Source: Polyangiales bacterium (GTDB lineage Bacteria; Myxococcota_A; Polyangia; Polyangiales; Polyangiaceae). From it: a stretch of 64,000 bases of DNA. Positions within the stretch are counted from its first letter, which is position 1. The number at the start of each line of letters is the position of its first letter. Shown in pieces: positions 39,339 through 61,115 of this stretch. The notes beneath the pieces are model-generated. The model was given only the letters and a program-made list of their open reading frames with translations. It was not told the DNA's origin and ran no database searches. A program made the position numbers and the translations under genes. The stretch spans positions 703,307-767,306 of the forward strand of contig JBBRLQ010000001.1 in assembly GCA_038231275.1 (NCBI GenBank). The letters run 5' to 3'.

Positions 39339-41333
39339 TTGGATCCGGCCTCGCCGACGAGCGCGCACGAGGGCGGCGCGATGCCTGGGGCAACGAGCCC
39401 GACGGACGCCGTCGTGCCCGACCTGGGCTACGACGAGCGGCTGCTCGCGCGCCCCTCCATCTTCGGCCAGCTGCGCGGGTGGCTTCGGGATTACTTCGTC
39501 GGTGAGGAGCCGACGTTCGGCATCGCGCTCGTGCCGATGTGCTTCTTGTCGATGATCCTCTTCACGCGGCACCCGCTGAAGACGAACTTCATCTTCGACG
39601 AGCAAGAGGCGCTCCTCGCCAACCCTTTCGTGCGCAGCGTCGCCGATCCGACGAGCAAGCTGCGCTGGATCGATGCATTTTACAGGGATTTTTGGGGCCT
39701 CACTGCCGAACGCAGCATTGGCTCGTACCGCCCGATTCCTGATCTCGTGTGGCGCGCGCTGTGGGCGATCGGCGCGCGCGAGTCGCCGTTCCTTCATCAC
39801 TGGGTCAACGTCCTCCTCCACGGCGTGAACGGCGCGCTCGTGGTCGTGCTCGTCGTGAAGCTCACGCAGAACCGTCGCGCGTCGTGGCTGTGCGGGACGC
39901 TCTTCGTCGCGAGCGCGATCGTGACCGAGGCGGTGAGCGGCGTCGTCGGGATCGCAGACGTCCTCGGCGGCCTCGGCGCTCTCCTCGCGCTGCTCGCCTT
40001 GCGCCTTCCGCTGTGGGGGATGCCCGTCGCGGTCTTCGCGGCGACGCTCTTCGGTTTGTATTCGAAGGAGAGCGCGCTCTGCTGCGTTCCGCTCGTCCCG
40101 ATGGCCGCGCTCTTGGCCGCGCCGAGCCTTCACCCCGAGCGGCCGCTCCGATGGCTCCGCGCGACGGTGGCCCTCGTGGCGACGTCGGCGGCGTTCGTCT
40201 TCTACGTCGAGGCGCGTCGACGCTGCTTCCCCGCGCCGCTCGCCGCCGAGCTCAGCATCCAAGCGAACGCCAACAAGCCCCTCATGGCGCGCACGTTCGC
40301 GGCGATGCTGCGCTGGTACGCGCAGCCGTCGTTGCCGAAGGACCCGCTCAACAACCCGCTGATCGACGCGACGCCGATGCTCCGCGTCGCTGGAGGCCTT
40401 CGCGTGTACGCGCGCGGCCTCGCCCAGGTCGTCTTCCCGTGGACGCTCTCGGGCGACTACTCGTCGCCGCAGGAGCCGATCCCGTCGCGCGTGTGGTTCC
40501 CGGAGAGCGTCCTCGGGCTCGCCGCGATGATCGTCCCTCCCATCGCCGCCGCCGTGCTCGGCGTGCGCGCGTGGCTGCGTGCCTACCGATTTCCCTACCC
40601 GCGCGTCGACGCGTCGCTCCTCGTCGCGATAGGCCTCGTGTGGGTGTGCGTCTCGTACTTTCCCGTGTCGAACATCCCGGTGGTGCTGCCGACGGTGCGC
40701 GCCGAGCGCTTCTGGTACTTCCCGGTCATCGGCACCTGCGTGTTCCTAGGCCTCGCGTTCGACAAGCTCATCACGCGCGCGCGCGGCGTCGGCATCGCGC
40801 TATTTCTCGCGTACCTCGCGCTGCAAGGCGTGAGCGCGCGACGGCACGCCAACGACTACACCGACGATCTCGTCTTCTGGGACGCGACGCGCAAGGCCGT
40901 CCCGAACAGCGCGAAGGCGCACCTCAACTACTCGGTCATGCAGGGCGCGCGCGGTCACCTCGACATCCGCCTCGCGTCGAACGAGCGCGCGCTCCAGCTC
41001 GCGCCGGAGTGGCCGATGGCGAGCGTCTACCTCGGCGACACGCTCTGCCGCCTCGGGCGGACGAGCGAGGCGTGGCCGCACTACGCGAAGGGCTTCGGCC
41101 TCGCGCCGAACGACATCAACCTCATCGCTCTCGGCGTGCAGTGCTTGTGGGATCAGCAGGGCCTCGTCGAAGGCTCGCCGCTGCGGGATACCCTGAAAAA
41201 CGCGGGCGAGGCGCACCCCGGGTCGTGGCTCGAGTACATCGCCCACGACACGCTCGACAACGGCGAGGAGCACAAGGGCGTCGATCCGAAGTACCGTCCA
41301 CGCGGGTACAACGAGGGGCCGAAGCAGGAGTAA
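39339..41333 (+). CDS. TMTC-like GT-C membrane glycosyltransferase with C-terminal TPRs
   Basis: FIFDEQEALLANP, DFWG, SYRP, HHWVNVLLH, EAVSGVVG.AD, SKE, PWTLSGDYS, AERFWYFP, AKAHLN. Confidence 0.85.
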   Translation: MDPASPTSAHEGGAMPGATSPTDAVVPDLGYDERLLARPSIFGQLRGWLRDYFVGEEPTFGIALVPMCFLSMILFTRHPLKTNFIFDEQEALLANPFVRSVADPTSKLRWIDAFYRDFWGLTAERSIGSYRPIPDLVWRALWAIGARESPFLHHWVNVLLHGVNGALVVVLVVKLTQNRRASWLCGTLFVASAIVTEAVSGVVGIADVLGGLGALLALLALRLPLWGMPVAVFAATLFGLYSKESALCCVPLVPMAALLAAPSLHPERPLRWLRATVALVATSAAFVFYVEARRRCFPAPLAAELSIQANANKPLMARTFAAMLRWYAQPSLPKDPLNNPLIDATPMLRVAGGLRVYARGLAQVVFPWTLSGDYSSPQEPIPSRVWFPESVLGLAAMIVPPIAAAVLGVRAWLRAYRFPYPRVDASLLVAIGLVWVCVSYFPVSNIPVVLPTVRAERFWYFPVIGTCVFLGLAFDKLITRARGVGIALFLAYLALQGVSARRHANDYTDDLVFWDATRKAVPNSAKAHLNYSVMQGARGHLDIRLASNERALQLAPEWPMASVYLGDTLCRLGRTSEAWPHYAKGFGLAPNDINLIALGVQCLWDQQGLVEGSPLRDTLKNAGEAHPGSWLEYIAHDTLDNGEEHKGVDPKYRPRGYNEGPKQE

Positions 41334-41339
41334 CGGCGC

Positions 41340-43295
41340 GTGCAATCTCCGTACACCTACGCTCCTTTGGACGCGATCATGGCCGCGCAGTCGGCCGTCG
41401 GCGCGACCTTGACCGCCGTGGCGCTCCATCGCCCGCGTCGCCCCGCGGTCGCGACGGCGGCGCTCATCGTGGCGATCTGGCTCGCGGTGCTCGTGCTGAT
41501 GCTCGGCGATTTCATTCGATCGTTCGGGATCACGCTCGAGACGACGTTCGACATCACGGTGCTCCATACGTCGTGCGTCCTCGCGGCGCTGTCGATGTTC
41601 ACCATTCGCCGGAAGATCTTCCTCCTCTACGTGGGCACGGGCGCGGCGGCCGTGTACCGCCTGACCGGGTACATCGAGCAGAGCCCGAGCGAGCTCGCTG
41701 CGCTTCACTTGCTCTTCTGCGGGGGTCTCCTCGGGCTCGAATGGGCCGCCGAAGACCGAGGTGCTTCCGGATCGCCCGACGTCGACGTCGTCGATCTCGG
41801 GAGCCGTCGCTTCGTCGTGCACGATCTGCTCCTCGCCGCGCTCGCGATAGCGATGGCCGCGCTCGTGAGCACGATCGTCCTCGAGCGCGCCGTCGATAGC
41901 GCGGACGAGTGGGGGTACACGTACCAAGCCGCCGTCATGGCGAAGGGGCATGCCTACGGCCGCGTGCCGCGGTGCGATCGCGCGTTCCAGAATTTCTGGG
42001 TGTTCTGGGCCGAGGGGCGCGAGTTCTCGCAGTACACGCCGGGCTGGCCGTATTTCATGGTGCCGTTCGTGTGGATTCGCGCGATTTGGCTGGCGGGGCC
42101 GTTCAGCTTCGGGCTCCTCGTGGCGGGCGTCGCGCGCGTGACGCGTCGTGCGTTCGCGGCAGGAGGTGCGCGCGGTGTCGGGGCGGCCGGCGTCTTTGGC
42201 GCGCTCTCGCTCATCGGAAGCTCCACGATGCTCATCAACGGCGGCTCTCGCTTCCCCCACATCTTCGTCGCCGCGATGCTCGCGTGGTCGATCGAGGCGG
42301 TGTGCGTCGTCACGGAGAAGGATCTCCTCGTCGAGCGGCAATGGCGCTGGGGGGTCATCCTCGGCTGCGCGACCGGCCTCGCCGTCTCCGCGCGTCCGCC
42401 CGACGGCGCGTTGCTCGGCCTCGGCCCGTTCCTCTTCCTCGCGTTCTCTCTCATCATCCGCCGTCGCGTCGGCTGGCGCGCGCTCGCCGGCGCCGCGCTC
42501 GGGTTTCTCTTCTGGACCGGCCTCACGACCGTGATCCTGCGTCTCCAGCTCGGCGTCTGGTTCAAGACGGGCTACGCGCTCACGACCGAGTTCCATCCAT
42601 GGAACATCTTCGGCTTCAGCATGCCCGGCCCGCACGAGCTTCGCTGGTCGTTCCCCCTCGGGACGGGCGCGTTTTGTTGGTGGCCGTGCGCGCCGGCGCT
42701 CGGTCTGCTCGGGCTCCTCGCCATCCCGGCGCGCGGCCGCCACATCGCCTTCATGCTCTTCGCGAGCTCGGGACCGCTCGTCCTCTTCTACATGGTCTCG
42801 GAGATCGGCCGGAACGTCGACTTCGGCTACGGCCCGCGTTACCAGCTCCACACGATCGTCCCGATGGCGATCGGCGGCGGGCTCCTCTTCGGGAAAATGT
42901 GGAAGGACGCGACCGCCCGCTTCTCGTCGCTCCGGCCGGTCGTCCGCGCCGGCCCGATCGCGGTCGCGATCGCCGCGGCCCTATGCGGCGTCGTCCGAAT
43001 CGCACCGCTCGTGTATCCGTTCAACCACCAGGACGTCGACAACCGGAACGTCATCTTCCGCGCGGCGAAGCGCGATCAGCTGCACCACGCGGTGGTGTTC
43101 ATCGCGCCTGGCGTGGGGATGGCGAGTCATTTGGACATGACGCAGAACATGCCGCTCGAGCTCTACCCGGCCGACGTGCTCTACGCGGTGGAGTACGGGC
43201 CGCAGGACGCGAAGTGCGTGCGTGCCAGCCACCCCGGATGGGATCTCTACCGCGCGCAGGGGCGGAGCGAGATCACGTTCGCGCGGGTGCCGTGA
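41340..43295 (+). CDS. GT-C (ArnT/PMT-like) multi-pass glycosyltransferase
   Basis: SADEWGYTYQA, FSQYTPGWP, ARPPD, YGPRY; more than 10 TMs. Confidence 0.75.
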   Translation: MQSPYTYAPLDAIMAAQSAVGATLTAVALHRPRRPAVATAALIVAIWLAVLVLMLGDFIRSFGITLETTFDITVLHTSCVLAALSMFTIRRKIFLLYVGTGAAAVYRLTGYIEQSPSELAALHLLFCGGLLGLEWAAEDRGASGSPDVDVVDLGSRRFVVHDLLLAALAIAMAALVSTIVLERAVDSADEWGYTYQAAVMAKGHAYGRVPRCDRAFQNFWVFWAEGREFSQYTPGWPYFMVPFVWIRAIWLAGPFSFGLLVAGVARVTRRAFAAGGARGVGAAGVFGALSLIGSSTMLINGGSRFPHIFVAAMLAWSIEAVCVVTEKDLLVERQWRWGVILGCATGLAVSARPPDGALLGLGPFLFLAFSLIIRRRVGWRALAGAALGFLFWTGLTTVILRLQLGVWFKTGYALTTEFHPWNIFGFSMPGPHELRWSFPLGTGAFCWWPCAPALGLLGLLAIPARGRHIAFMLFASSGPLVLFYMVSEIGRNVDFGYGPRYQLHTIVPMAIGGGLLFGKMWKDATARFSSLRPVVRAGPIAVAIAAALCGVVRIAPLVYPFNHQDVDNRNVIFRAAKRDQLHHAVVFIAPGVGMASHLDMTQNMPLELYPADVLYAVEYGPQDAKCVRASHPGWDLYRAQGRSEITFARVP

Positions 43296-45001
43296 CCGGG
43301 ATGACGGAGCGCGGAACGCCGTGGTATGTGCAGGCGACGATGGCTCCCTGGCGGCTCGTTCGTGAGCGCACCGCGGCTGTGAGATCTAGCCTCGCCGTCG
43401 TGGCGGCGCTCGTGTCGTCCACATTCCGGGCCGCGGGAGCGTCGCCGCCCGTGCGGCGCACGGTTTCGCTGTTGACGCTCGGCCTCACGCTCGGCCTATC
43501 GGCATACGTCTTCCTGCTCTTCAACGATCGGTTTTTGCACGGCGGCGTGGACTTCGACGAAAGCCACTTCGTTTGGGGCGGCTGGTGCATCACGAAAGGG
43601 CTCGTCCCCTACAAGGAGTTCCTCGAGTTCAAGCCGCCGTTCGTCTTCCTGACCCACGCGCTCGCGATCAAGCTCCATGGGTACGACGCCTTCGGCTACC
43701 GAAAGCTCTTCGCGTACCTGCCCCTCAGCTCCTTGCTCGCGCTGCAGCTCTCGATGATCTCACGGGGGATCGACAAGTGGCTCGCGCTCGGCGTCGTCCT
43801 CGCAATCATCCAGCTCTGGGTGAACCCCGTCTACCACGACGTATCGCTCGGCGACTCAGAGTCGATCGGCCTCACGTATTACTTCTTCGCCGTCGCGTGC
43901 CTCCTCGCGAAGACACGCATGCGCAACGTGATGACCGCCGTCGGTGGTGCGTTCATCGTCGCCTGCATCCAATCCAAAGAGCCCTTCTTGCCGTGCGCCG
44001 GCCTGACGTGGATCAGCTGCTTTCTGCTCGGCGAGCGCACGTCGACGTTTCGCAAGGACGCGCTCCGTTACCTGAAGTGGTGCGCGGTCGGTGGTGGCGC
44101 CGTCGTCGTTGCGCTCGTGATCTATATGGTTCCGACCGGATCCATGCGCGCCTATCTCGGGATGATGCGCGGCTATTTTCACTTCTACCGCGATCCGATG
44201 CAGTCCTACTGCGTCGTGCTCGGCCGCTTCCACCCGACGACGCCGCTCAACGATCTGCTCGTCCAGTTCAAGCAAGCGCGCCGCGAGTTCCTGAATAGGA
44301 CCATGCTGGGATTCCTGGTCCCGTTCGGCGCGATCTCGCTCGTCTTCATCGGTCGCACGTCGCGCGCGCTCCTGGCGCTCACGGTCGCGGGTTGCTTCTT
44401 CGCGCTCATGGCGGTGACGGCCAGCAACTGCCAGTGGCTGCACTACTACAACATGACGATGAGCGGCCTCTTCTTCTTCCTCGTGGTCGGGCTCGATGCG
44501 GTCACGCCGTCATTCAAGAAGCTCGAGCCCGCGATGCGCGTGTTCGTTCGCGTCGCGCTCCTGGCGAGCGTCCTCGTGCACATCTGGCCGCGCATCGAGG
44601 TCGAGCGTGAGGCGTACGGAACGCGGACGTACCCGAATGCCTACGCCGAGCCGATTCCCGGCATCCTGAGCTTCATCGAGGCGCACACCGGGCCCGCGGA
44701 TCGAATCTTCACCACCGGCCAGCCGGCGCTCTACGTCCAGTCGAACCGCATCAGCGCGATACGAGAGAGTGCGATCATCGACGAGGCGCTCGGATACTAC
44801 GAGGGCGACACGGACGAGAAGAAGCTCGCCGGGCTGCGCGCCGAGCTCGAAGAGCATCGACCGAAGGTCGTGATCCTCGATCCGGTCTACGGCAATCGCA
44901 AAGGCCGGACGAACCGTGCCCTCATGTTCCCGTTTCTCGAGGCGAACGGCTATCGCAAGGTGACCGAGTACGCGTGGCTGAGGCCGGACGTGACGCCGTG
45001 A
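43292..45001 (+). CDS. GT-C multi-pass glycosyltransferase
   Basis: DFDESHFVWGG..KGLVPYKEFLEFKPP, SKEP, WLHYY, periplasmic C-terminal domain; GTG start coupled to the upstream stop. Confidence 0.78.
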   Translation: MTGMTERGTPWYVQATMAPWRLVRERTAAVRSSLAVVAALVSSTFRAAGASPPVRRTVSLLTLGLTLGLSAYVFLLFNDRFLHGGVDFDESHFVWGGWCITKGLVPYKEFLEFKPPFVFLTHALAIKLHGYDAFGYRKLFAYLPLSSLLALQLSMISRGIDKWLALGVVLAIIQLWVNPVYHDVSLGDSESIGLTYYFFAVACLLAKTRMRNVMTAVGGAFIVACIQSKEPFLPCAGLTWISCFLLGERTSTFRKDALRYLKWCAVGGGAVVVALVIYMVPTGSMRAYLGMMRGYFHFYRDPMQSYCVVLGRFHPTTPLNDLLVQFKQARREFLNRTMLGFLVPFGAISLVFIGRTSRALLALTVAGCFFALMAVTASNCQWLHYYNMTMSGLFFFLVVGLDAVTPSFKKLEPAMRVFVRVALLASVLVHIWPRIEVEREAYGTRTYPNAYAEPIPGILSFIEAHTGPADRIFTTGQPALYVQSNRISAIRESAIIDEALGYYEGDTDEKKLAGLRAELEEHRPKVVILDPVYGNRKGRTNRALMFPFLEANGYRKVTEYAWLRPDVTP

Positions 45002-45014: not shown

Positions 45015-46139
45015 ATGAGCGAGGGCGGCGCGGCGCCTGCGAGCGTGAGGCTCGCGTCACTTGACGGACTTCGCGGCCTCGCGGCGCTGGGGGTGGCGTT
45101 TTTCCACTTTCAGCATTTCGGCGGGGACGCCAAGAGCTACCCCGGGGCCACCGTCGAGCCGGCGACCTGGCTCTACACGCGCGGCTGGATGCTCGTCGAC
45201 TTCTTCTTCCTCCTGAGCGGCGTCGTCTTCACTTACAAGTACCTGGAGCCGATCGCCGCGCGACGTCTGGGAGCTCGCGAGTTCTTCTTCCTGCGTCTTT
45301 CGCGCATCTATCCCCTTCACGTCGCGACGCTCCTCGTCTGCGCGATGATTCAGTGGCGACTCCTTCTGAAGGGCGAAGCGCCGCTCATCTACCCGCACGC
45401 GGATCTCTATCACTTCGTCCTGAATCTCTTCTTCTTCCAAAACGGAGCGTTCGAGGAGGGGTACTCGTACAACGGCGCGTCGTGGAGCATCGCCACGGAG
45501 GTCTACGCGTACGTCGTCTTCTTCGCGCTCGCGTCGCGTCTGCGCGGGCGGTATGTCGTCGGCGCGGTCGGCGCGGTGGCGGCGGCGCTGGCGGTGTACA
45601 AGGCGCGGCTCGCGCTGCCCTTCTTGAACGAGACGGTCGCGCGCGCGATCGTCGGGTTCTTCGTCGGATCGCTGCTTTTCTCGGGCGTTTCGCACGCCCA
45701 GCGCCTGGGACGCGCGCGCGCCGTCGGTCTCGCGGCGCTCGTCGCGCTCGCGTTCGTCGCGGCCATGGCGAGCGTCATCGGGTACGACGCATTCATCGGA
45801 GGGACGGGATACCGCACCGCCGTGCCCCACGTGCTCGGCGTCTTCCCGCTCGTGATCGCCGTCGCGCTCTCTGTCACGCCGGTCGCGCGAATCCTCGGAG
45901 CGAGGCCGCTGACGTACCTCGGCGAGATCTCGTACGCCGTGTACATGCTGCACGTCCCGCTCCAGATGATCGTCCTCAGCTTCGTGCGTGCGCGCAACAT
46001 CACGTTGCCAACCGGCCATCCGGCGATGCTCGCGATGTTCCTCGGCGCGCTGCTCCTGCTGTCCGCGCTGGTGCACCGAACGTTCGAGGTTCCCGCACGC
46101 TCCTGGCTTCGGCGGCGCCTCTTGCCGCCCGCCGCCTAG
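45015..46139 (+). CDS. Acyltransferase family 3 (OafA-like O-acyltransferase)
   Basis: LDGLRGLAA, VDFFFLLSG, RLSRIYP, WSIATE, LGEISYAVYMLH. Confidence 0.92.
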   Translation: MSEGGAAPASVRLASLDGLRGLAALGVAFFHFQHFGGDAKSYPGATVEPATWLYTRGWMLVDFFFLLSGVVFTYKYLEPIAARRLGAREFFFLRLSRIYPLHVATLLVCAMIQWRLLLKGEAPLIYPHADLYHFVLNLFFFQNGAFEEGYSYNGASWSIATEVYAYVVFFALASRLRGRYVVGAVGAVAAALAVYKARLALPFLNETVARAIVGFFVGSLLFSGVSHAQRLGRARAVGLAALVALAFVAAMASVIGYDAFIGGTGYRTAVPHVLGVFPLVIAVALSVTPVARILGARPLTYLGEISYAVYMLHVPLQMIVLSFVRARNITLPTGHPAMLAMFLGALLLLSALVHRTFEVPARSWLRRRLLPPAA

Positions 46140-50803: not shown

Positions 50804-50874
50804 CGCGAAGAGCGCGGACTGTAGGGCGAAAACCGGCGTCTCGCAAGCCGAGTCGGTGCTACGTTTCGGCCGAA

Positions 50875-53161: not shown

Positions 53162-53935
53162 TCACTTCTTTGTCGCGATCACCACGTACCCCAGCGTCTC
53201 CGTCGGCACGTTCGCCGCGCGGTCGAGCACGCGCGCCATCGCGCCGATCCCGAACATCGCCGGCGCCACGAACGGGAGCGTCCAAAGCCGCGTCTTCCCC
53301 GCCTCGCTCTTCTCCTGACGCCCCGATCCCGCGTCCATCGCCGCCGCCCGCGCGCCCGCGACGTCGTACGCGAGGAACGTGTTCAGCTTGTGCCCGATGA
53401 GGCTCCACAAGCTCCCGCGCGCCGTCACCGTGCGCACGTCGTAGCCGACCTTCTCGCAGAGGAACCGCAGGCCGTGCGGCGTGAAGCGGAAGTAGTCGTG
53501 CGGCTCTTCGTGGAGCCGAAACGAGAACGGCGCCGTCAAGATGAGGAGGCCGCCCTTCTTCGACACGCGCGCCATCTCGCGCAGCAGCCCTTCGGGATCC
53601 GGCGTGTGCTCGAGCACCTGGAAGCTCACGACCGTGTCGAACGCGCCGTCCTCGAACGGCATGCGTTTGCCGTCGTAGTAGTGATCAGGGCCCTTGCCGT
53701 TCGTGGTCGTCGTCGACGCCGCGGTCTCCGCGAACGTGTCGCGGTACTCGACGCCCACGTACTCGGTCACGTGCGCGCGAAAAATTTCTTCGTACGGCTT
53801 CTCGCCGCAGCCGACGTCGAGCAGGCGTCCATGCGCCATCGGCGCCACCTCACGCAGGGCATCTCGGAGGAGCGCCGACTCGAGATCGACCCAGCCCGCC
53901 GCGGCGGTCTTCAGCCGGGCGAGGGTCGTGCTCAT
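53162..53935 (-). CDS. Class I SAM-dependent methyltransferase
   Basis: LLDVGCGEKPY, MPFEDGAFD, QVLEH, HEEPHDYFRFT. Confidence 0.9.
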   Translation of the reverse strand: MSTTLARLKTAAAGWVDLESALLRDALREVAPMAHGRLLDVGCGEKPYEEIFRAHVTEYVGVEYRDTFAETAASTTTTNGKGPDHYYDGKRMPFEDGAFDTVVSFQVLEHTPDPEGLLREMARVSKKGGLLILTAPFSFRLHEEPHDYFRFTPHGLRFLCEKVGYDVRTVTARGSLWSLIGHKLNTFLAYDVAGARAAAMDAGSGRQEKSEAGKTRLWTLPFVAPAMFGIGAMARVLDRAANVPTETLGYVVIATKK

Positions 53936-55041: not shown

Positions 55042-55130
55042 GTCCGCGGGGATATACACCGTGACCTCGGGGTCGTCATTTCGTCATTTGCCTTGCCGGG
55101 CACGAGGCAGGGTGGAATATCAGCGTAGAA

Positions 55131-55775
55131 ATGAGCCAAAACCAGGGGACGGGGACGGGCACGGACCGCGACCACGCCTACGGGCAAGGGCACGAGCTCA
55201 CCTTCGCCGACAAATTCGGCAACTGGCTCTCCGCCGTGCAGATGCGCCGCGCCATCGGCCGCTTCGACGGGAAAGACGTCGCGAATTTCGGCTGCGGCTA
55301 CAACGCGACGTTCGAGCGCTCGATCAAGGACCAGGTCCGCTCGCTCACGCTCGTCGACATCGCGCTGGCCGACGACTTGAAGCGCGATCCGAAGATCCGC
55401 GCCGTCGAGGGCGTCTTGCCGGACGTCATCGAGCAGGTGGCGGACAAGAGCCTCGACATCGTCTTGTGCGTGAACGTGCTCGAGCACCTCTGGGAGCCGC
55501 GCCGCGCGCTCGAGGGCTTCCGCCGCGTTCTCCGTCCCGGTGGCCTGTGCTTTTTGAACGTCCCGTCGTGGAGCGGCAAGGTGGTGCTCGAGACGCTCGC
55601 CTTCCGCATGAACCTCGCGCCCAAGGCCGAGATGGACGACCACAAGGACTACTACGACCGCAAAGACCTCTGGCGCCTCGTCGTCGCGAGCGGCTTCAAG
55701 CCGAGCAACATCGTGTGCCGCCGCCACAAGTTCGGGCTGAACACGTTCGCGGTCTGCCGAAACGAGGCGACGTGA
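55131..55775 (+). CDS. Class I SAM-dependent methyltransferase
   Basis: NFGCG, VDI, NVLEHL, RVLRPGG. Confidence 0.88.
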   Translation: MSQNQGTGTGTDRDHAYGQGHELTFADKFGNWLSAVQMRRAIGRFDGKDVANFGCGYNATFERSIKDQVRSLTLVDIALADDLKRDPKIRAVEGVLPDVIEQVADKSLDIVLCVNVLEHLWEPRRALEGFRRVLRPGGLCFLNVPSWSGKVVLETLAFRMNLAPKAEMDDHKDYYDRKDLWRLVVASGFKPSNIVCRRHKFGLNTFAVCRNEAT

Positions 55776-55778: not shown

Positions 55779-56438
55779 CTACTTCTTCTTGCCACGGTTG
55801 CGCCACGCGGAGTTGAACTCCTCGATCGTGGTCTCGGTGCGCGGGTTCCAGACCATCTTGCGCAGGATCGGCGGCGTGATCGTCGGGACGTGCGCGCCGC
55901 ACTCGAGGGCTTCGTTGACGTCCATGATGTGGCGCATCGAGCCGACGATGATCTTGGACGGAAGGTTCTCGCGATCGAGGACGTCGCGCGTCGCGGCGAT
56001 GACCGGCTTTACGTCGTAGCCCATGTCGCGCACGCGGCCGGAGAAGATGCTCACGTACGTCGCGCCGGCGAGCGCGGCCAGGTAGGCCTGGTTCATCGCC
56101 ATGAGGCACGTCACGTTCGTCTTCACGTTCTTCTTCGTGAGCTGGTGCACGACGCGGAGGCCGTGCTCGCTCATCGGCACCTTGATGCAGATGCGCGCCG
56201 GATCCCACGCGTGGTAGACGGCGGCCTCCTCGAGCATCTCCTTCTCGGTCTCGGTCGTCAGCTCGACCGACACGTCGCCCCAGCTGACCGCGATGATCTC
56301 TTTGATGCGCTCGCCGAGGTCCGCGTCGGGGGCCTCCTTCGCGATGATCAGCGGGTTCGTGGTGACGCCGGAGAGGACGCCCCAGCCGAAGAGATCCTTG
56401 ATTTCCTTGGGGTCCGAGCTGTCGATGAAGATGGCCAT
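55779..56438 (-). CDS. tal: Transaldolase (short TalC/FSA-fold, transaldolase-type residues)
   Basis: IFIDS, GVTTNP, VSVE, IKVP (Schiff-base Lys), NVT, YVSIFSGR. Confidence 0.9.
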   Translation of the reverse strand: MAIFIDSSDPKEIKDLFGWGVLSGVTTNPLIIAKEAPDADLGERIKEIIAVSWGDVSVELTTETEKEMLEEAAVYHAWDPARICIKVPMSEHGLRVVHQLTKKNVKTNVTCLMAMNQAYLAALAGATYVSIFSGRVRDMGYDVKPVIAATRDVLDRENLPSKIIVGSMRHIMDVNEALECGAHVPTITPPILRKMVWNPRTETTIEEFNSAWRNRGKKK

Positions 56439-56474: not shown

Positions 56475-57098
56475 TCAGCCTGCGGCGAGGACCGCGGCGG
56501 CCACTTCGCCGAACGATTTACCGACCACGTCGGGCGCCCCGGCGGGGCCGCCGCGAAGCGGACAAAGCTCGCAGCGATCGGTTCGGAACACGAGCGCCGT
56601 GCGCATTTTTGCGGCGCGTCCGGCGTCGAGGTCCGCGCGCGCGTCGCCGATCATCCAGCTCTTACTGCGGTCGGCGTCGAAGGCCTTCACGATCGCGTCG
56701 AGCATCCCCGGCGCGGGCTTTCGGCAATCGCACGGGCCGACCGACGGGTGGTGCATGCACACCTCCACGCGCGCGATCGTGATCCCCTCGGCAGCGAGCA
56801 TCGCGACGAGCGCGTCGTTGGTGCGCGTCACCGCCGCCGCCGTGAGCTGCCCCTTCGCCGGGCCCGGTTGGTTCGTCGCCATCGCCAGGATGAAACCTGC
56901 ACTCTGCAATGATTTGAGGCCAGAAATCACGCCGTCCAGGAGCTTCAGCTGGCTTGGATGGAACGCCGTCGAGACCGTGCCGGTCTCTTCGTCGCGGTAG
57001 ACGTCGATGAGGGTGCCGTCGCGATCGAGGATCGCCACACGCGCGGCCCCGGCCCCGCCGCCGACACCACCACCAGAAACTATTTCACGCTCTCCCAC
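56475..57098 (-). CDS. gmhB: D,D-heptose 1,7-bisphosphate phosphatase (HAD IIIA)
   Basis: LDRDGTL, TNQPG, CMHHP..CDCRKPAPGM, MIGD. Confidence 0.9.
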   Translation of the reverse strand: MGEREIVSGGGVGGGAGAARVAILDRDGTLIDVYRDEETGTVSTAFHPSQLKLLDGVISGLKSLQSAGFILAMATNQPGPAKGQLTAAAVTRTNDALVAMLAAEGITIARVEVCMHHPSVGPCDCRKPAPGMLDAIVKAFDADRSKSWMIGDARADLDAGRAAKMRTALVFRTDRCELCPLRGGPAGAPDVVGKSFGEVAAAVLAAG

Positions 57099-57679
57099 TT
57101 CGTCTTCGCCTTCTGGAGCTTGGGGTGGCTCACGAGCAAGTGCCAGATGACCGCGCAGAAGCCCTCGGTGTGCGGCGTGACGCGCGCGTCGTTCACGGTC
57201 GGGATGACCACGCAGGCGTCGCCTTCCTTCTTGGTGAAGCCGCCGTCGCGCCCGACGATGCCGAACACCTTCGCGCCGACCTCCTTCGCGAGCTCGATGG
57301 AGCGCACGAGGTTCACGCTCACGTTCTTCTCGCGGTTGCCGCCGCCGACGGAGAAGACGAGGATCGCGTCGCCCGACCGCAAGCGCGACACCTTAAGCCA
57401 CTCGCTGAAGCATGTGTCCCACCCTTCGTCGTTCACGCGCGCGGTGAGTTCGCTCACGTTGTCGGTCGGCGCGTACGCCTCGAAGCCGCAGATTTTCCGA
57501 AAATCGTTCACCGCGTGCCCGGCGTGCCCGGCCGATCCGCCGACGCCGAGGAGAAACAGCCGGCCGCCGTGATCGCGCACGTCGGCGAGGCCGGTGGCGA
57601 GCTTCTCGATTTCGGCGACGTCGAGCGCGTGAATGAGCTTGATGGATTCGTCGAGGAAGGTCTTGGCGAAGTCGGTCAT
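57080..57679 (-). CDS. gmhA: Phosphoheptose isomerase (SIS domain)
   Basis: GVGGSAGHAGHAVNDF, LTARVND, FSVGGG, GRDGG, HTE. Confidence 0.9.
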   Translation of the reverse strand: MTDFAKTFLDESIKLIHALDVAEIEKLATGLADVRDHGGRLFLLGVGGSAGHAGHAVNDFRKICGFEAYAPTDNVSELTARVNDEGWDTCFSEWLKVSRLRSGDAILVFSVGGGNREKNVSVNLVRSIELAKEVGAKVFGIVGRDGGFTKKEGDACVVIPTVNDARVTPHTEGFCAVIWHLLVSHPKLQKAKTKWESVK

Positions 57680-58037: not shown

Positions 58038-59033
58038 CTACGACCGATGAAAGTTCGCCACGATGCGCGCGCCGTCGAGATCGAAGCGGAAGCGCAAGGG
58101 CTTGAGGCCGCGCGAAATCATCGCGTCGTACAGCCGCCGCTTGTCGGTCGGGCGCGCGTAGAACATGAAGAAGCCGCCGCCGCCTGCGCCCATCAGCTTG
58201 CCGCCGATCGCGCCGGCGTTGCGCGCGGCGTCGTAGTGCTCGTCGATCGAGCTGTCGGTCATGTTGCTCGCGAGCTTGCGCTTGTTCGTCCAGTGCTCGT
58301 GGAGGAGCTCGCCGTATTTGTCGATCTCGCCGGACAGGAGAATGCGGCGCGTCTCGTAGCCGAGCTCTTTGATGCGGTGCATCTTCTGGACGGCGTCGTC
58401 TTTGTTGGCGGCGATGGTCTTGCCTTGCTCTTTGAGGACGCTCGACGCCGCGCGCTCGACGCCCGAATAAAAGATGAGGAGGTTCGACTCGAGCTCGTCG
58501 CGGACCTCCGCCTTCATCGGGACCGGCTCCACCGTGACTGTGCCGTCGGTGTTAAACGTGAACGCCGTCACGCCGCCGTACGCCGCGATGTACTGGTCCT
58601 GCTTGCCGATCGGCTCCTTGAGGACGTCGATCTCGATTTTGCACGCGGTCCGCGCGAGCTCCTCGGTCGAGACGTACTGGCGGCGGTAGGCGTGGAGGCC
58701 GTTCAAGAGCGCGACGCTGAAGGTGCTCGACGAGCCGAGACCGGAATTCGCTGGCACGTCGGCCATGCTGAAGAGCTCGACGCCCTTGTTCACGCCGACC
58801 TCGCGCATGCACTCGCGGAAGAGGCGGTGCTGCACCTCGTCGACCGTGTCGACCAGCTCGGTGTGCGAGTAGCCGAGGCGGATCTTGTCGTCGAAGCGCT
58901 CGTGGATGGCGATGAAGATGTACTTGTCGACCGCGGCCGCGACGAGGAAGCCGCCGTGCGCGTTCGCGTAGCTCGGCAAGTCGGTGCCGCCTCCGCCGAG
59001 GGAGAAGCGAACGGGAGCGCGGGAGAGGATCAC
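58038..59033 (-). CDS. hddA: D-glycero-alpha-D-manno-heptose-7-phosphate kinase (GHMP)
   Basis: SRAPVRFSLGGGGTD, PANSGLGSSS, IGKQDQY, GGKLMGAGGGGF. Confidence 0.92.
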   Translation of the reverse strand: MILSRAPVRFSLGGGGTDLPSYANAHGGFLVAAAVDKYIFIAIHERFDDKIRLGYSHTELVDTVDEVQHRLFRECMREVGVNKGVELFSMADVPANSGLGSSSTFSVALLNGLHAYRRQYVSTEELARTACKIEIDVLKEPIGKQDQYIAAYGGVTAFTFNTDGTVTVEPVPMKAEVRDELESNLLIFYSGVERAASSVLKEQGKTIAANKDDAVQKMHRIKELGYETRRILLSGEIDKYGELLHEHWTNKRKLASNMTDSSIDEHYDAARNAGAIGGKLMGAGGGGFFMFYARPTDKRRLYDAMISRGLKPLRFRFDLDGARIVANFHRS

Positions 59034-59238: not shown

Positions 59239-60324
59239 TTACTTGGGCGCGCGGACGATCGCGGACGTGTATGCGACGTAGACGCAGGAGGCGTCGAACG
59301 CGATGTCCGCCACTTGCCCGTACGCCGGGACGAGACCCATCGACGGTCCCGGGTGCATTCCGTCGTCGTGGGTCGTGCTGTCGATGACGGTCGAGCGCGA
59401 TCCGTCGGGCGCGACCTTCACGATCGAGAAACCATCGTCGTCGAAGTAGACGGCGCCGTCGGCGACGCCGAGGACCCATCCTCGAACGTTGCTGGCGAGC
59501 GTGGTGGGCGCGTCGCCTCCGGCAAGAAGTGCGCGCTGGATGGTGTGCTCCGACTTCGTCGCGTCGAGCCAGTACGCGCTCGCGTCGTCGGCGACGATCA
59601 CCCATGGCGAGACGCCGCGCGCGAGCACGTTCGTCGTCCCGTCGGCGAGCGAGGCGGTGGCGACGGTGTCGGTGGTCGCGAGCACGAGCGACGAGCCGTT
59701 GAACGCCGTCCGGCTTCGGCTGAGCGGCTTGTCGCCGGTGACACCAACGATGGGGACCGCCTGAACGGTGCCGTCCGCCGCGCGCCGCTGGAGACCGTAC
59801 GAGTACGGCCCGCTCCCGCCCGCCGCAGGCGTCGACGTGACCCACGCGAGCGCGCCGCCTGCCGCCGAGAGGAGGACGGGGCTATCGAGCTTCTGGAGGA
59901 GAACCGACGGCGCGCCTCCCGGCGTGACGGCGCGAATCCAGCCGCCCTTGCCGCCGGACCAATCGAAGCTTTGCGCGTCGCCGGACCAGAGGACGTCTCC
60001 GTCGCGAAAGAGGACGCGACCGTCGAAGCCGGGATCGTCCGGCCCGGTGCCGATCTTCCGCGCGTCGCCGCCGGTCAGCGGCGCGGTGTAGAGCGCGCCG
60101 TCGATGGAGTTCCACCAGGACGCGTGCGTCGCGCCGATCGCGAGGTTCCCCCAGAGGACGAAGTTGGCGCGGGCGAGGACGGTGGGCGGATCGCCCGGTC
60201 GACAGAGGAGCGGCTGGCCGTTCGCGGCGACGCGCTCGGCCGGAAGATCATCGACACCCAAGTTGGAGCGGGAGCACGCCATGACCGCGCCAAGCGCGAT
60301 ACACACGATCACCGAAGCCTTCAT
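59239..60324 (-). CDS. Putative lipoprotein with beta-propeller repeats
   Basis: Lipobox VMAC; repeats such as IVADDASAYW, GVADGAVYF, AFDASCVYV. Confidence 0.8.
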   Translation of the reverse strand: MKASVIVCIALGAVMACSRSNLGVDDLPAERVAANGQPLLCRPGDPPTVLARANFVLWGNLAIGATHASWWNSIDGALYTAPLTGGDARKIGTGPDDPGFDGRVLFRDGDVLWSGDAQSFDWSGGKGGWIRAVTPGGAPSVLLQKLDSPVLLSAAGGALAWVTSTPAAGGSGPYSYGLQRRAADGTVQAVPIVGVTGDKPLSRSRTAFNGSSLVLATTDTVATASLADGTTNVLARGVSPWVIVADDASAYWLDATKSEHTIQRALLAGGDAPTTLASNVRGWVLGVADGAVYFDDDGFSIVKVAPDGSRSTVIDSTTHDDGMHPGPSMGLVPAYGQVADIAFDASCVYVAYTSAIVRAPK

Positions 60325-60416
60325 CTTGGAACCCCTTCCGAGCGGCGAGCCTAGAACAACCGTCCTTCGGAGGGAACGATCGTCCCGGTGAGGAGTGGTG
60401 ACGCGCGACGAGCCCA

Positions 60417-61115
60417 TCAAGGAGCCTTGGTCAGGTGCCGTTCGAGCGTCGCCAGGCCCTCGGGGGAGCCGACCTCGAAGAACCGGTCGTGGGCCAAATG
60501 GGCTCGCAAGCGCTTCCTTTCGGCGAGGTCGCGCTGGACGGCGTCGAAGCCGAGCGCCTTGCCCTCCGGGAGCGCGGCGATGACGCTACGACGGATCGCG
60601 ACCGCGCCGTAGTCGATGTGATCGAACGCGGGATCCTTGGTCCCCTTCTCGTACGCGAGGAGCCACGCGCCGTCGGTGCGCACGTTCGACGGATCCCACT
60701 TTCCCTCGTTCTTGAAGACGCTCATCACGCCGTCGCAGTCGTCATGCACGCCCAGCTCGCGGAGCGGCGCGGCGTAGTCGAAGGGGAGGTAGCTGTCGCC
60801 GTACGTCACGAGGAACGTCGGCGCGAGGAGCGCGAGGGCGAGGCGGATCGCGCCGGCGGTGCCGAGGAGGTTCGGTCCCTCGCTCGAATACCGCACGCGC
60901 AGGTCGAAGCGCGCGCCGTCGCCGACGTGCTCCTCGATCTGCTCGCCGAGGTGCGCGATGCACATCACCACGTCGTCGTAACCGCACGCGGCGAGCTTCT
61001 CGAGCTGCCAGTCGACGAACGGCCGCCCCGCGACCGGGAGCATCGACTTCGGCGTGGTCAATGTGCGCGGCCGCATCCGCGTCGCGAGCCCGCCTGCGAG
61101 AATAACGGCCTGCAT
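60417..61115 (-). CDS. hddC: Sugar-1-phosphate nucleotidyltransferase (heptose-1-P guanylyltransferase)
   Basis: ILAGGLATRMRP..PKSML, LGTAGA, YGDSY, FFEVGSPE; hdd/gmh context. Confidence 0.85.
   Translation of the reverse strand: MQAVILAGGLATRMRPRTLTTPKSMLPVAGRPFVDWQLEKLAACGYDDVVMCIAHLGEQIEEHVGDGARFDLRVRYSSEGPNLLGTAGAIRLALALLAPTFLVTYGDSYLPFDYAAPLRELGVHDDCDGVMSVFKNEGKWDPSNVRTDGAWLLAYEKGTKDPAFDHIDYGAVAIRRSVIAALPEGKALGFDAVQRDLAERKRLRAHLAHDRFFEVGSPEGLATLERHLTKAP

Follow-up and report, generated by a model that had tools for sequence, protein, structure and literature searches.

The gene island described here occupies positions 39339-61145, on both strands, of a 64,000-nt stretch of DNA (the window) from a Gram-negative soil myxobacterium. 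Its genes were called by GC3 frame analysis together with Pfam and NCBIfam scans, with GDP-mannose 4,6-dehydratase (GMD) as the only island enzyme assignment to pass the curated NCBIfam equivalog cut-offs. The island encodes three polytopic membrane proteins (M1 to M3), an AT3 acyltransferase, two GT2s, two GMD paralogues, a 3-C-methyltransferase, an SDR epimerase, three methyltransferase domains and the set fsa-gmhB-gmhA-hddA-hddC, in agreement with the inventory drawn up in the original prediction. The window ends with the contig, leaving 2.9 kb beyond the locus. The genes for M1, M2, M3 and AT3 follow each other on the + strand at a spacing of 5-13 bp and look co-transcribed. As predicted, the three consecutive polytopic proteins each carry an early Asp-Glu pair (D87-E88, D189-E190 and D86-E87, respectively).

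Membrane proteins of three families unrelated by profile comparison

M1 (39339..41333, + strand; 664 aa) ends in a C-terminal TPR domain (residues 520-627). Its membrane part has no Pfam family match, and PF08409 is absent even at E 10. When compared alone, this part matched seven distant relatives with E values of 4e-18 to 7e-26, four of which contain PF08409, and the Atlas neighbours of M1 are PMT_2/TMTC_DUF1736 clusters. The membrane domain is homologous to that of bacterial TPR proteins bearing TMTC_DUF1736 and retains the acidic pair, located 11 residues past the first hydrophobic helix, as well as an SKE and an NPL...LSxDYS motif. Transitive sequence homology thus supports the assignment of M1 as a TMTC/PMT_2-like protein. 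In the features covered by the relevant parts of Eisenhaber et al. (2021; PMC7801869), M1 resembles TMTC1-4 (GT105) in its N-terminal polytopic domain, the acidic pair after TM1, its C-terminal TPR region and a DUF1736-like loop region, which aligns to the DUF1736 match of a relative. Unlike TMTC1-4, it is bacterial, has few TPR repeats and lacks a PF08409 match.

M2 (41340..43295; 651 aa, including an extra N-terminal region of ~150 aa) and M3 (43301..45001; 566 aa) are likewise encoded on the + strand. Pfam, NCBIfam and PDB sequence searches gave no match for M2, and neither Pfam nor NCBIfam gave one for M3. AF2 models of the two proteins (pLDDT 95.3 and 93.5, respectively) matched the GT-C fold. 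In a VIA comparison, all 50 matches listed for each model were GT-C-fold membrane proteins, including ALG12, with Z scores of 21.3 for STT3, 21.0 for AglB and 19.2 for ArnT in the case of M2, and of 20.7 for Pmt2, 20.3 for Pmt4 and 18.5 for ArnT in the case of M3. Foldseek returned ArnT as the top match for M2 (E 2e-8) and STT3, DPY19, AftA and ArnT as matches for M3. In both models, the first core helix of the GT-C fold is directly followed by a helix that begins with the Asp-Glu pair. The pair is invariant among 114 aligned sequences for M2 and 115 for M3, and this constancy at the same core position places it far beyond a chance dipeptide. The models therefore support M2 and M3 as predicted GT-C-fold glycosyltransferases of two separate unannotated families, with a transferase activity predicted from the fold. 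A GT-C fold had been proposed for all three membrane proteins; it is upheld by the AF2 models for M2 and M3, and for M1 transitive sequence homology points to a TMTC/PMT_2-like protein. By profile comparison, the three families are mutually unrelated.

Glycosyltransferases, methyltransferases and sugar-pathway genes

The AT3 gene (45015..46139, + strand; PF01757, 88 bits) encodes an integral-membrane acyltransferase that probably O-acetylates a sugar or glycan, and homologues with 49-50% identity adjoin M3 in two related loci. It is followed on the - strand by a GT2-methyltransferase fusion (GT2MT; 46158..47591; PF00535 plus PF08241), whose best PDB matches are the Dol-P-Man synthase of P. furiosus (5mlz, E 2e-20) and then ArnC (9hwj). 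The second GT2, GT2b (53932..55059, - strand), is Dol-P-hexose-transferase-like, with a 140-aa N-terminal extension; it scores 147 bits against NF041391, a haloarchaeal model, 74 bits against AglJ and E 3e-4 against ArnC. Neither protein contains a transmembrane segment. The closest NCBIfam and PDB relatives of both are polyprenyl-phosphate-sugar synthases, as the original prediction had it, and GT2MT is a candidate synthase paired with M3. Apart from the domain fused to GT2MT, class I SAM methyltransferases are encoded at 53162..53929 (- strand; PF08241, 68 bits), with a GC3 frame change at ~53930, and at 55131..55775 (+ strand; PF13489/PF08241), all three domains being intact, as anticipated. 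Homologues of the latter protein occur in ten related loci, where they usually adjoin a GT2 and a GT-C of the M3 or M2 type.

One group of sugar genes comprises GMD itself (49796..50884, - strand; TIGR01472, 522 bits vs a cut-off of 415), an NDP-sugar 3-C-methyltransferase of the TylC3/TcaB9 type (48525..49907, - strand, start probably near 49790; PF08421, PF13489 and PF08484) and a GMD paralogue (47596..48639, - strand, start probably near 48520; PF16363, 237 bits; TIGR01472, 195 bits, under the cut-off). The methyltransferase has D-mycarose 3-C-methyltransferase as its top PDB match (E 7e-54) and also matches TcaB9. The GMD paralogue is 39% identical to the true GMD; it matches GMDs of known structure at E 1e-60 and Rmd reductases at only E 1e-18. 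No clear 4-keto reductase was identified for the C-methyl branch. The GalE-like SDR epimerase (50797..51834, + strand, start probably near 50875; PF01370) has 3ehe (GalE-1) as its top PDB match (E 7e-72), and homologues with 66-75% identity adjoin M2 in metagenome loci.

The second group, on the - strand, consists of a short transaldolase/fructose-6-P aldolase family protein (fsa/tal; 55779..56438; PF00923; TIGR00875, 161 bits), which may supply sedoheptulose-7-P and has homologues with 85-98% identity in related loci, a gmhB-like heptose 1,7-bisphosphate phosphatase (56475..57098; NF006506, 113 bits), a gmhA-like sedoheptulose-7-P isomerase with a SIS domain (57080..57679; PF13580; TIGR00441, 47 bits), an hddA-like D-glycero-D-manno-heptose-7-P kinase of the GHMP type (58038..59033; NF049969, 179 bits) and an hddC-like sugar-1-P nucleotidyltransferase (HddC/ManC/MurU-like; 60417..61145; PF00483). 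All NCBIfam scores in this group lie under their cut-offs, including those of the nucleotidyltransferase against MurU (128 bits), Man-1-P guanylyltransferase (105 bits) and HddC (68 bits). The proposed tal-gmhA-hddA-gmhB-hddC pathway is thus present as an enzyme set at sub-cut-off scores, but not in that order, since the coding strand reads hddC, lipoprotein, hddA, small ORF, gmhA, gmhB, fsa.

Island edge and signs of rearrangement

Two lipoproteins are encoded within the island. The first (52366..53145, + strand) combines a signal peptide and lipobox with a rhamnosidase-N-like beta-sandwich stretch (weak match to NF041573, E 5e-6). The second (59239..60420, - strand) has a lipobox and no Pfam match and lies between hddC and hddA. 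Neither is conserved in related loci. In a same-genus genome, hddC sits directly beside hddA; in the island, the second lipoprotein gene is an insertion between the two, and a 29-aa copy of the hddC C-terminus is found at 59073-59159 (72% identity, E 2.5e-6). The right edge of the island is marked by a tRNA-Lys(CTT) gene (61181..61254, + strand; ARAGORN) and a frame with a truncated rve_3 integrase core, a transposase remnant (61231..61713, + strand; PF13683, 54 bits, residues 66-131). An antitoxin-like ORF is also present.

These traces of insertion and rearrangement, together with the lack of transmembrane segments in the GT2s, their family scores below cut-offs and the location of M2 and the heptose module on separate contigs in the same-genus genome, could be taken to indicate a mosaic without common function, in which the GT2s act in the cytoplasm on sugars for a natural product or the LPS core and the GT-C proteins are mere neighbours. 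We consider this improbable, because the linkage of GT2, GT-C and sugar genes recurs in many assemblies and a second phylum, GT2MT homologues lie close to M3 in seven of the related loci, and both GT2s are most closely related to synthases of lipid-phosphate sugars.

Conservation of the M2 and M3 modules and of M1

Among 31 other M3 loci, 24 contain at least one further cluster gene and seven contain none; a GT2MT or GT2b homologue is found in 17, heptose genes in 11 and GMD, C-methyltransferase or GMD-paralogue genes in 10. The set includes a locus from Melainabacteria. The 78 M2 loci, many of them shorter than 8 kb, contain the epimerase in 14 cases, hddA in seven and GT2b in five, and most of the short ones carry no cluster gene. 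These associations suggest that M3 may be partnered by GT2MT and the GMD/C-methyl module, and M2 by the epimerase, the heptose module and GT2b. Within the family, both proteins have a patchy, accessory distribution, with M2 in 6/40 and M3 in 2/40 other genomes. Related loci also carry further GT2s, DUF2079 and PMT_2 proteins, large polytopic proteins and a fusion of a polytopic protein with a carbohydrate-binding module (NPCBM). The expected synteny with GT2s and sugar genes therefore holds for M2 and M3 across many Polyangia assemblies, but not for M1, which was found at a distance of up to 10 kb in only two of the 78 M2 loci, both from metagenomes, and in none of the 31 other M3 loci.

M1 belongs to the core genes of this bacterial family and has been inherited vertically: it was found in 19/23 other genomes of the family and in 0/277 sampled genomes outside it. 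M2/M3 clusters also occur outside the family, so M2 and M3 do not need M1. Pfam scans of the flanks of M1 in six other family genomes identified variable cassettes of sugar, GT2 and polytopic-protein genes in three and no such cassette in the other three.

These data bear on the proposal of a protein O-glycosylation system in which M1 adds the first lipid-carried sugar to Ser/Thr residues of secreted proteins or lipoproteins and M2 and M3 extend it in the periplasm, on the model of O-mannosylation in eukaryotes or actinobacteria. The homology and retained motifs of M1, its apparent co-transcription with M2, M3 and AT3, its position beside variable cassettes and, in two metagenome loci, beside M2, the lack of polysaccharide assembly genes nearby and the two island lipoproteins are all consistent with this idea. 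However, M1 is near none of the other M3 loci and few of the M2 loci, neither lipoprotein is conserved in related loci, the NPCBM fusion points rather to glycan acceptors, and the portions of the literature covered by our search contained no characterised bacterial TMTC-like enzyme. We therefore regard protein O-glycosylation as rather unlikely.

Absence of assembly genes from the window and possible acceptors

The predicted lack of polysaccharide assembly genes was confirmed within the window: Pfam identified no Wzx, Wzy, Wzz, ABC, WaaL, PGT or GT4 families in any called gene, and no Wzx, Wzy or ABC families among 57 proteins scanned from five related loci. Only 2.9 kb of the contig remain after the locus, however, and such genes may be located past position 64000. 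The locus also contains no flippase gene (GtrA, SMR, MATE or Wzx); three GtrA-family genes are located elsewhere in the genome.

AT3 acyltransferases typically go with glycan modification, related loci encode membrane proteins with carbohydrate-binding modules, and the patchy spread of M2 and M3, the tRNA-Lys gene and the integrase remnant would fit a serotype-converting island. The island may thus decorate a glycan assembled elsewhere (LPS O-antigen or core, EPS or capsule) by classical side-chain addition, in the manner of two or three copies of a Gtr/Arn/GT136-type three-component system. Consistent with this idea, the characterised Gram-negative systems described in the pertinent sections of Kelly et al. 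(2024; PMC11127046) all modify pre-formed glycans or lipid A. On the other hand, there is no flippase gene, each locus has several GT-C proteins, the donors would be GDP-derived and the synthases lack membrane anchors; moreover, the many large polytopic proteins and GT2s in related loci, without primary assembly genes, look more like de novo stepwise assembly. Post-assembly decoration is a serious contender, although we would not bet on it at even odds.

Discussion

Our results favour a modular accessory system of the Gtr/Arn/Ppm1 kind, in which extracytoplasmic GT-C enzymes would use polyprenyl-phosphate sugars made from GDP-derived donors (probability about 0.65). Judging from their families, Fsa, GmhA, HddA, GmhB and HddC would produce GDP-D-glycero-D-manno-heptose in the cytoplasm, and GMD, the C-methyltransferase and the GMD paralogue a 3-C-methylated GDP-4-keto-6-deoxy sugar, with further tailoring by the epimerase and the separate methyltransferases. 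The two soluble DPM1/ArnC-like GT2s would move single sugars from GDP to polyprenyl phosphate, a protein encoded outside the locus would flip the products, and M2 and M3 would transfer them to the acceptor in the periplasm, with acetylation by AT3. M1 is located at the conserved edge of this variable cassette and may share a target with M2 and M3. An envelope glycan or glycolipid is the leading, if tentative, candidate for the acceptor; secreted proteins or lipoproteins are doubtful and other molecules slightly more so. Several observations count against this modular reading, namely the missing flippase gene, the unanchored GT2s, the sub-cut-off family scores of all enzymes except GMD, a nucleotidyltransferase nearer to MurU/ManC than to HddC, the lack of a clear 4-keto reductase, the absence of co-conservation between M1 and M2/M3, the nearby contig end and the M3 and M2 loci without cluster genes.

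As far as the systems treated in the relevant parts of PMC11127046 are concerned, the island resembles GtrA/GtrB/GtrC, ArnC/ArnEF/ArnT and the GT136 system of C. youngae in combining a predicted GT2 polyprenyl-monophosphate-sugar synthase with an outer-face GT-C and in forming an accessory cassette of patchy distribution. Unlike them, it has neither a flippase gene nor a glycan assembly locus nearby, it encodes three GT-Cs of families unrelated by profile comparison, and GDP-heptose and a GDP-6-deoxy-C-methyl sugar would take the place of UDP-hexoses, UDP-Ara4FN or PRPP as the source of its donors. Its GT2s, one of them fused to a methyltransferase, also differ from GtrB, ArnC and archaeal DPMS in lacking a transmembrane anchor.

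In Ppm1/DPM1 systems, a DPM1-type GT2 that can do without its own transmembrane anchor moves the sugar from its GDP donor to polyprenyl or dolichyl phosphate, and several GT-Cs then transfer it stepwise. Actinobacterial Ppm1 serves PMT, PimE and MptA-C, and eukaryotic DPM1 serves PMT, TMTC and ALG3/9/12. The island shares with these systems a DPM1-type GT2, several GT-Cs and synthases that lack an anchor of their own. It differs in its likely sugars, heptose and C-/O-methyl deoxy sugars instead of mannose, in M2 and M3, which belong to no described family, and in its Gram-negative myxobacterial host. With GDP-heptose capsule loci, it has in common the GmhA, HddA, GmhB and HddC set and the types of enzyme by which GDP-heptoses are diversified, namely dehydratases of the GMD type, epimerases and methyltransferases; those loci, however, employ cytoplasmic Leloir glycosyltransferases and depend on ABC transporters, neither of which the island encodes, its partners being lipid-phosphate synthase-like GT2s and GT-Cs.

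Collectively, the GT-C fold of M2 and M3, the type of the GT2s and the co-conservation of M2 and M3 with GT2 and sugar genes proposed in the original prediction are supported, whereas the three membrane proteins do not form one conserved unit. A literature search for lipid-linked heptose gave nothing. The operating principle is already known from three-component systems and from Ppm1 and its GT-C partners; the chemistry of the donors and the families to which the GT-C proteins belong look undescribed.

Gene organization of the locus

The G+C content of the window ranges from 65 to 73%, and genes were therefore called by third-position G+C and then checked with Pfam and NCBIfam. The three consecutive polytopic membrane proteins M1 (39339-41333; 664 aa), M2 (41340-43295; 651 aa) and M3 (43301-45001; 566 aa) are encoded within a run of six plus-strand genes, spaced by 3-21 bp, which starts with an RNase H gene (37755-38480), continues with an SDR gene (38502-39335) directly upstream of M1 and ends with the gene for an AT3 acyltransferase (45015-46139). 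Convergent with this run lies a minus-strand gene (46158-47591) whose product combines a GT2 with a class I methyltransferase. This gene is separated by genes for a GMD paralogue and a sugar C-methyltransferase, both on the minus strand, from a bona fide GDP-mannose 4,6-dehydratase (GMD; 49796-50884, minus strand; TIGR01472, 522 bits with a cut-off of 415). The adjoining segment encodes a GalE-like SDR (plus strand, ending at 51834), a lipoprotein (52366-53145, plus strand), a methyltransferase and a second GT2, GT2b (together 53162-55059, minus strand), and a third methyltransferase (55131-55775, plus strand). It is followed by a minus-strand heptose operon that reads from an hddC-like gene (60417-61145) through an inserted lipoprotein gene, hddA, a small ORF, gmhA and gmhB to a short transaldolase/FSA gene, down to position 55779. 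The original prediction had listed these genes correctly, except for their order within the heptose operon. Apart from that of GMD, all enzyme names are based on scores under the NCBIfam equivalog cut-offs.

As stated in the original prediction, the called genes of the window contain no match to Wzx, Wzy, Wzz, ABC-transporter, WaaL, phosphoglycosyltransferase or GT4 families. The 17 genes upstream of the region are unrelated housekeeping genes, likewise without polysaccharide-assembly families in Pfam, and the sequence visible past hddC is limited to 2.9 kb because the 767-kb contig stops at window position 64000. The absence of glycan assembly genes favors a protein as the acceptor of the sugars, whereas the presence of AT3 speaks for a glycan or glycolipid. 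No GtrA, SMR or MATE flippase gene was found among the called genes of the locus or the ORFs in its gaps, and a dedicated search of the intergenic gaps for a small GtrA-like ORF was also negative. Three GtrA-family (PF04138) genes are present at other sites of the genome, the closest of them at a distance of about 83 kb. One of the three (G000:C7:544-876) is located 0.5 kb from a contig start, and the contig containing the window stops just after the island.

Several features suggest an accessory island. The G+C content decreases to 65-67% at 44-52 kb, compared with 69-73% in parts of the upstream region. At the right edge, a tRNA-Lys(CTT) gene (61181-61254) directly follows hddC and is succeeded by a truncated rve_3 integrase frame (to 61713), which may together represent the integration edge of the sugar island. 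Within the heptose operon, the segment 59073-60420 contains a family-less lipoprotein ORF of 393 codons that has been inserted between hddC and hddA, leaving behind a 29-residue copy of the C-terminal end of hddC (72% identity, E 2.5e-6); in a genome of the same genus (L128), hddC directly adjoins hddA. The small ORF between gmhA and hddA (57775-57987, minus strand) matches the Pfam family of Rv0078B-related antitoxins (41.5 bits). The lipoprotein encoded at 52366-53145 has a linker rich in Ser, Thr, Asp and Val together with a stretch that weakly resembles the N-domain of alpha-L-rhamnosidases. It lacks counterparts in related loci and may bind glycans or serve as an acceptor. Two further regions outside the cluster stand out: a plus-strand ORF of 501 codons (61768-63273) with an ArsR HTH at residues 276-350, which is probably over-extended and contains a NIPSNAP-family ORF with high GC3 on the opposite strand (62149-62496), and a 1452-aa minus-strand ORF with high GC3 (11658-16016) that has no Pfam match at E 1e-4.

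Predicted GT-C fold of M2 and M3

The membrane parts of M1-M3 gave no sequence match in Pfam (E up to 10), NCBIfam or the PDB, and the A3 profile retrieved TPR proteins only when compared with the PDB. Unannotated homologues are numerous (260 for M2, 129 for M3 and >1568 for M1) and derive mainly from metagenomes and from assemblies labelled Polyangiaceae, Polyangia or Myxococcales. Structure models based on alignments of 114-115 homologues reached a pLDDT of 95.3 and a pTM of 0.94 for M2, and of 93.5 and 0.91, respectively, for M3. When compared with the PDB by Foldseek, M2 was most similar to ArnT (E 2e-8), followed by ALG12, ALG9, PglB and STT3, while M3 retrieved STT3, AglB, PglB, DPY19, AftA and ArnT, with E values starting from 9e-6. 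VIA comparisons of M2 yielded Z scores of 21.3 for STT3 (419 aligned residues, rmsd 5.5), 21.0 for AglB, 20.3 for ALG12, 20.1 for Pmt4 and 19.2 for ArnT (5f15; 401 aligned residues, rmsd 4.5). For M3, the values were 20.7 for Pmt2 (6p25_B; 346 aligned residues, rmsd 4.2), 20.3 for Pmt4, 19.3 for ALG12, 18.5 for ArnT (429 aligned residues) and 18.2 for STT3. All of these scores exceed the level that helical models may attain by chance, which is up to roughly 13-14 according to the tool's note, and among the best 50 entries listed per model, 50 of 50 were GT-C-fold membrane proteins for M2 and M3 alike. The models thus superpose on solved GT-C enzymes, in agreement with the GT-C assignment made from sequence, and by their predicted fold M2 and M3 belong to the GT-C superfamily.

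The catalytic acidic residues of GT-C enzymes reside after the first core helix, as seen in the structures of ArnT, PglB and Pmt1. In M2, D189-E190 is invariant across 114 sequences, and the same is true of D86-E87 across 115 sequences of M3; in both models, this Asp-Glu pair marks the beginning of the short helix that directly succeeds core helix 1. In M2, the GT-C core starts near residue 151. Residues 1-150 (window 41340-41790) form about five additional N-terminal helices, which are found family-wide and not covered by any structural match. The resemblance of M2 and M3 to Pmt2 and Pmt4 is at fold level only, and none of the three membrane proteins gave a match to the PMT domain (PF02366) or the MIR domain with E values up to 10. 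A common origin of the three membrane proteins was rejected at the sequence level (hhalign probabilities of 0.2-5%), the sole shared stretch in these alignments being the region of a Ser-Lys-Glu motif between M1 and M3. M2 and M3 are candidates for two new GT-C families that lie outside all Pfam and NCBIfam models.

Relationship of M1 to TMTC and PMT_2 proteins

The description of M1 as TMTC-like is consistent with its distant relatives. In a search of 1.8 billion representatives, M1 gave 145 matches at E <= 1e-30. While M1 itself, with E values up to 10 allowed, has no match to PF08409 (DUF1736, the loop linking TM7 with TM8), TMTC_DUF1736 was detected in 6 of 39 aligned full-length relatives, two of which scored above the cut-off (P0510, 39.8 bits; P0513, 31.2 bits). 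With the membrane part alone (residues 40-480) as the query, seven distant relatives were identified at E values between 4e-18 and 7e-26, and DUF1736 is present in four. Residues at about 339-400 of M1 align with the DUF1736 segment of P0510, D87-E88 is aligned with an Asp-Asp pair of the distant relatives, and both the Ser-Lys-Glu motif and an NPL...LSxDYS stretch align with the relatives' DUF1736 segment. At its C-terminus, M1 carries TPR matches (residues 520-627), which favor a protein acceptor. A simple hydropathy scan detected 7 strong segments in M1, compared with 11 TM helices in the TMTC/GT105 reference. Language-model neighbors of the membrane part, which serve as a lead only, were PMT_2 clusters in 24 of 30 named matches and included one eukaryotic DUF1736 cluster. 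Given its DUF1736-bearing relatives, the aligned motifs and the TPR-containing C-terminus, we regard M1, on the basis of sequence, as a homologue within the TMTC/PMT_2 clan. The TMTC features used for this comparison are those given in PMC7801869. In the literature searched, we found no example of a characterised bacterial TMTC/PMT_2-TPR protein.

Sugar-modifying enzymes and GT2 proteins

The closest relatives of both GT2 proteins are all polyprenyl-phosphate sugar synthases, with scores under the curated cut-offs. The GT2 domain of the GT2-methyltransferase fusion is closest to the dolichol-phosphate-mannose synthase of Pyrococcus furiosus (5mlz, E 2e-20) and also related to ArnC, and its NCBIfam neighbors are PgfS, AglJ, PpgS and ArnC. 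GT2b (53932-55059, minus strand) matches best to a haloarchaeal dolichyl-phosphate hexose transferase (NF041391, 147 bits with a cut-off of 375) and also resembles AglJ and ArnC. No hydrophobic or TM segment was detected in either of the two proteins. The N-terminal 140 aa of GT2b (54640-55059) have no family match and, judged by eye, may correspond to a degenerate half methyltransferase fold.

The nearest relatives of the C-methyltransferase are D-mycarose 3-C-methyltransferase and TcaB9 (E 7e-54), whose substrates are NDP-4-keto-6-deoxy sugars. The GMD paralogue was considered as an Rmd-type reductase, but its similarity to dehydratases (E 1e-60) is much greater than that to Rmd reductases (E 1e-18), so that the 4-keto reduction step lacks a clear candidate. 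The epimerase SDR is GalE-like. Among the heptose enzymes, NCBIfam scores amounted to 179 bits (cut-off 600) for HddA, 113 (178) for GmhB, 47 (209) for GmhA and 68 (300) for HddC, with the MurU model scoring higher for the latter (128 bits); the GmhA/HddA/GmhB/HddC set is syntenic in many relatives. The pathway would accordingly yield a GDP-6-deoxy-3-C-methyl sugar as well as a GDP-heptose that may be epimerised and O-methylated.

Recurrent association of M2 and M3 with sugar and GT2 genes

A scan for M3 relatives, which covered one genome per species, identified 41 loci, nearly all of them in Polyangia or Myxococcales assemblies. Synteny was assessed by tblastn for the 31 loci with full-length M3, considering genes within 10 kb. 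At least one other cluster gene was present in 24 of them, a homologue of either GT2 in 17, heptose genes in 11, and GMD, the C-methyltransferase or the GMD paralogue in 10; M2 was found in two loci and M1 in none, and cluster genes near M3 were absent from the remaining seven (L006, L007, L013, L014, L019, L022, L029). The nearest M3 relatives (54-58% identical) are part of a block comprising GMD, the C-methyltransferase, the GMD paralogue, M3 and the GT2-methyltransferase fusion, while remoter ones (33-53%) lie in a block with hddC, gmhB, fsa, gmhA, the epimerase, a GT2 and a methyltransferase. This second block also occurs in a Melainabacteria assembly (L034; M3 identity 23%), which belongs to a different phylum. 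As a whole, this locus encodes heptose enzymes, SDRs, two GT2s, a methyltransferase and a 699-aa M3-family protein as well as three more large polytopic proteins and a pair of amine-oxidase-like flavoproteins. A Chthoniobacterales locus (L033) contains an M3 relative and further polytopic ORFs, with no homologue of a window gene above the synteny threshold. For M2, 79 metagenome loci were analyzed, 78 with a full-length match and many under 8 kb. They contained homologues of the epimerase (14 loci), hddA (7), a methyltransferase (7 or 6), GT2b (5), gmhA, gmhB and fsa (4 each), hddC (3), M1 (2) and M3 (1).

When 57 additional proteins encoded in five related loci were scanned with Pfam, they were found to include further GT2s, GT2-methyltransferase fusions, membrane proteins of the DUF2079 and PMT_2 families, BacA, family-less large polytopic proteins and amine-oxidase-like flavoproteins, but no match to Wzx, Wzy or ABC families. 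The same scan identified a polytopic protein that ends in an NPCBM carbohydrate-binding module (L028:16729-18630) and single-pass membrane proteins carrying F5/8-type C (discoidin) domains on the periplasmic side (L028:56-931, L028:4142-5137, L051:3861-4847, L129:3507-4436), whose presence argues for a glycan or glycolipid acceptor. These single-pass proteins were examined as possible Ser/Thr/Pro-rich acceptors and dismissed, with an S+T+P fraction of at most 0.33 in any 40 residues. Only 2 of the 16 other large polytopic proteins tested from related loci belong to the M1-M3 families, and the counts of polytopic ORFs in these loci, being unfiltered for coding frame, are indicative only. Based on the synteny of M3 and M2 and the content of related loci, the linkage between sugar pathways, GT2s and GT-C proteins is real and recurrent. 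Co-conservation with these genes is thus seen for M2 and M3 across many Polyangia assemblies, but does not extend to M1.

M1 follows a different distribution. In a sample of 300 genomes of the phylum (membrane domain, E <= 1e-40), it was detected in 19 of the 23 further genomes sampled from the window's family and in none of the 277 from outside it. An even sample of the class yielded M1 in 2 of 81 genomes, and a role as a universal myxobacterial gene was rejected; M3 was likewise found in 2 of 81. Within the family, M3 is present in 2 of 40 other genomes and M2 in at least six of 40, a floor set by a stricter filter. The upstream SDR adjoins M1 in eight of nine M1-bearing family loci, which identifies the SDR and M1 as a pair that is old and has been inherited vertically. 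The gene content that follows M1 varies. A genome of the same genus has M2 (72% identical), followed by a different set of genes that includes a methyltransferase, part of a transketolase, SDRs and a GT2. Its heptose module (82-98% identical), two methyltransferases and GT2b are located on another contig, where hddC and hddA adjoin each other, together with a different M3-type GT-C protein (32% identical). In G206, M1 is followed by two methyltransferase genes, fsa, genes for a polytopic protein of 661 aa and an F5/8C protein, and the heptose genes; in G279, it is followed by genes for a hexapeptide acyltransferase, a UDP-GlcNAc 2-epimerase, a GT2 and a polytopic protein of 684 aa. In L132, L133 and L135, Pfam identified unrelated genes; this flank scan did not include L131, L134 and L136. 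M1 is thus a conserved enzyme located beside a variable glycosylation cassette, an arrangement compatible with a functional tie. Such a position favors a protein acceptor, whereas the independence of M2 and M3 from M1 points to a glycan or glycolipid, given that M2/M3 systems clearly operate in M1-less lineages.

Proposed pathway and acceptor

The best-supported reading is a stepwise pathway. It builds on the predicted GT-C fold, the invariance of the acidic pair, the synteny and the similarity of the GT2s to known families, whereas its donor chemistry, enzyme pairing, flipping step and acceptor are inferred. GDP-sugars would be synthesized and tailored in the cytoplasm and then transferred onto polyprenyl phosphate by the two DPM1/ArnC-like GT2s. 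After translocation by a flippase encoded outside the locus, the lipid-linked sugars would be passed on by M2 and M3 to an extracytoplasmic acceptor, with AT3 mediating acetylation. M3 may act with the GT2-methyltransferase fusion and the C-methyl branch, and M2 with the epimerase, the heptose enzymes and GT2b.

Among the candidate acceptors, a glycan or glycolipid is slightly preferred, with a probability of roughly 0.45, and would also agree with all characterised Gram-negative precedents. O-glycosylation of a protein, as put forward in the original prediction, is somewhat less probable. A more elaborate version is less probable still: soluble DPM1-like GT2 fusions would generate polyprenyl-phosphate-linked heptose, a donor not described before, and its C-methyl-deoxy counterpart, the conserved TMTC-like M1 of this myxobacterial family would start the O-glycosylation of envelope proteins, and variable cassettes of the new GT-C families M2 and M3 would extend the chains by one sugar at a time in the periplasm, giving rise to a bacterial counterpart of glycosylation in the ER lumen with strain-variable glycans.

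Irrespective of the acceptor, the system can be placed among known ones. Actinobacteria (Ppm1) and the ER (DPM1) combine one lipid-phosphate-sugar synthase with multiple GT-C enzymes, a logic that the locus resembles more closely than that of the three-component systems. The latter, which include GtrABC, ArnC/EF/T and the recently defined GT136 system as described in PMC11127046, follow the same principle. Compared with both groups, the locus differs in its putative GDP-heptose and C-methyl-deoxy donors, in synthases that lack a TM anchor and are fused to methyltransferase domains, in its missing flippase gene and lack of an adjoining assembly locus, and in the presence of several GT-C proteins from unrelated, unannotated families. 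Full-text searches, with subscription journals and about 1.7 million PMC articles outside their coverage, returned no account of lipid-linked heptose, and the articles listed for GT-C proteins with heptose or for myxobacterial protein glycosylation contained none of a locus of this type. The system thus varies a known principle, with two candidate new GT-C families and a plausibly new class of lipid-linked donors. Overall, the observation underlying the original prediction was confirmed and its interpretation partly supported.

Collectively, if this model is right, it would establish heptose and C-methyl deoxy sugars on polyprenyl phosphate as a new class of lipid-linked donors, add two GT-C families beyond the coverage of Pfam and NCBIfam, and show stepwise, Leloir-independent assembly of extracytoplasmic glycans to be modular and widespread beyond Actinobacteria. 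The pairing of heptose genes, GT2s and GT-C proteins recurs in Polyangia assemblies and one Melainabacteria locus. Moreover, the location of M1 beside variable sugar cassettes would offer a concrete starting point for testing what bacterial TMTC/PMT_2-TPR proteins do.
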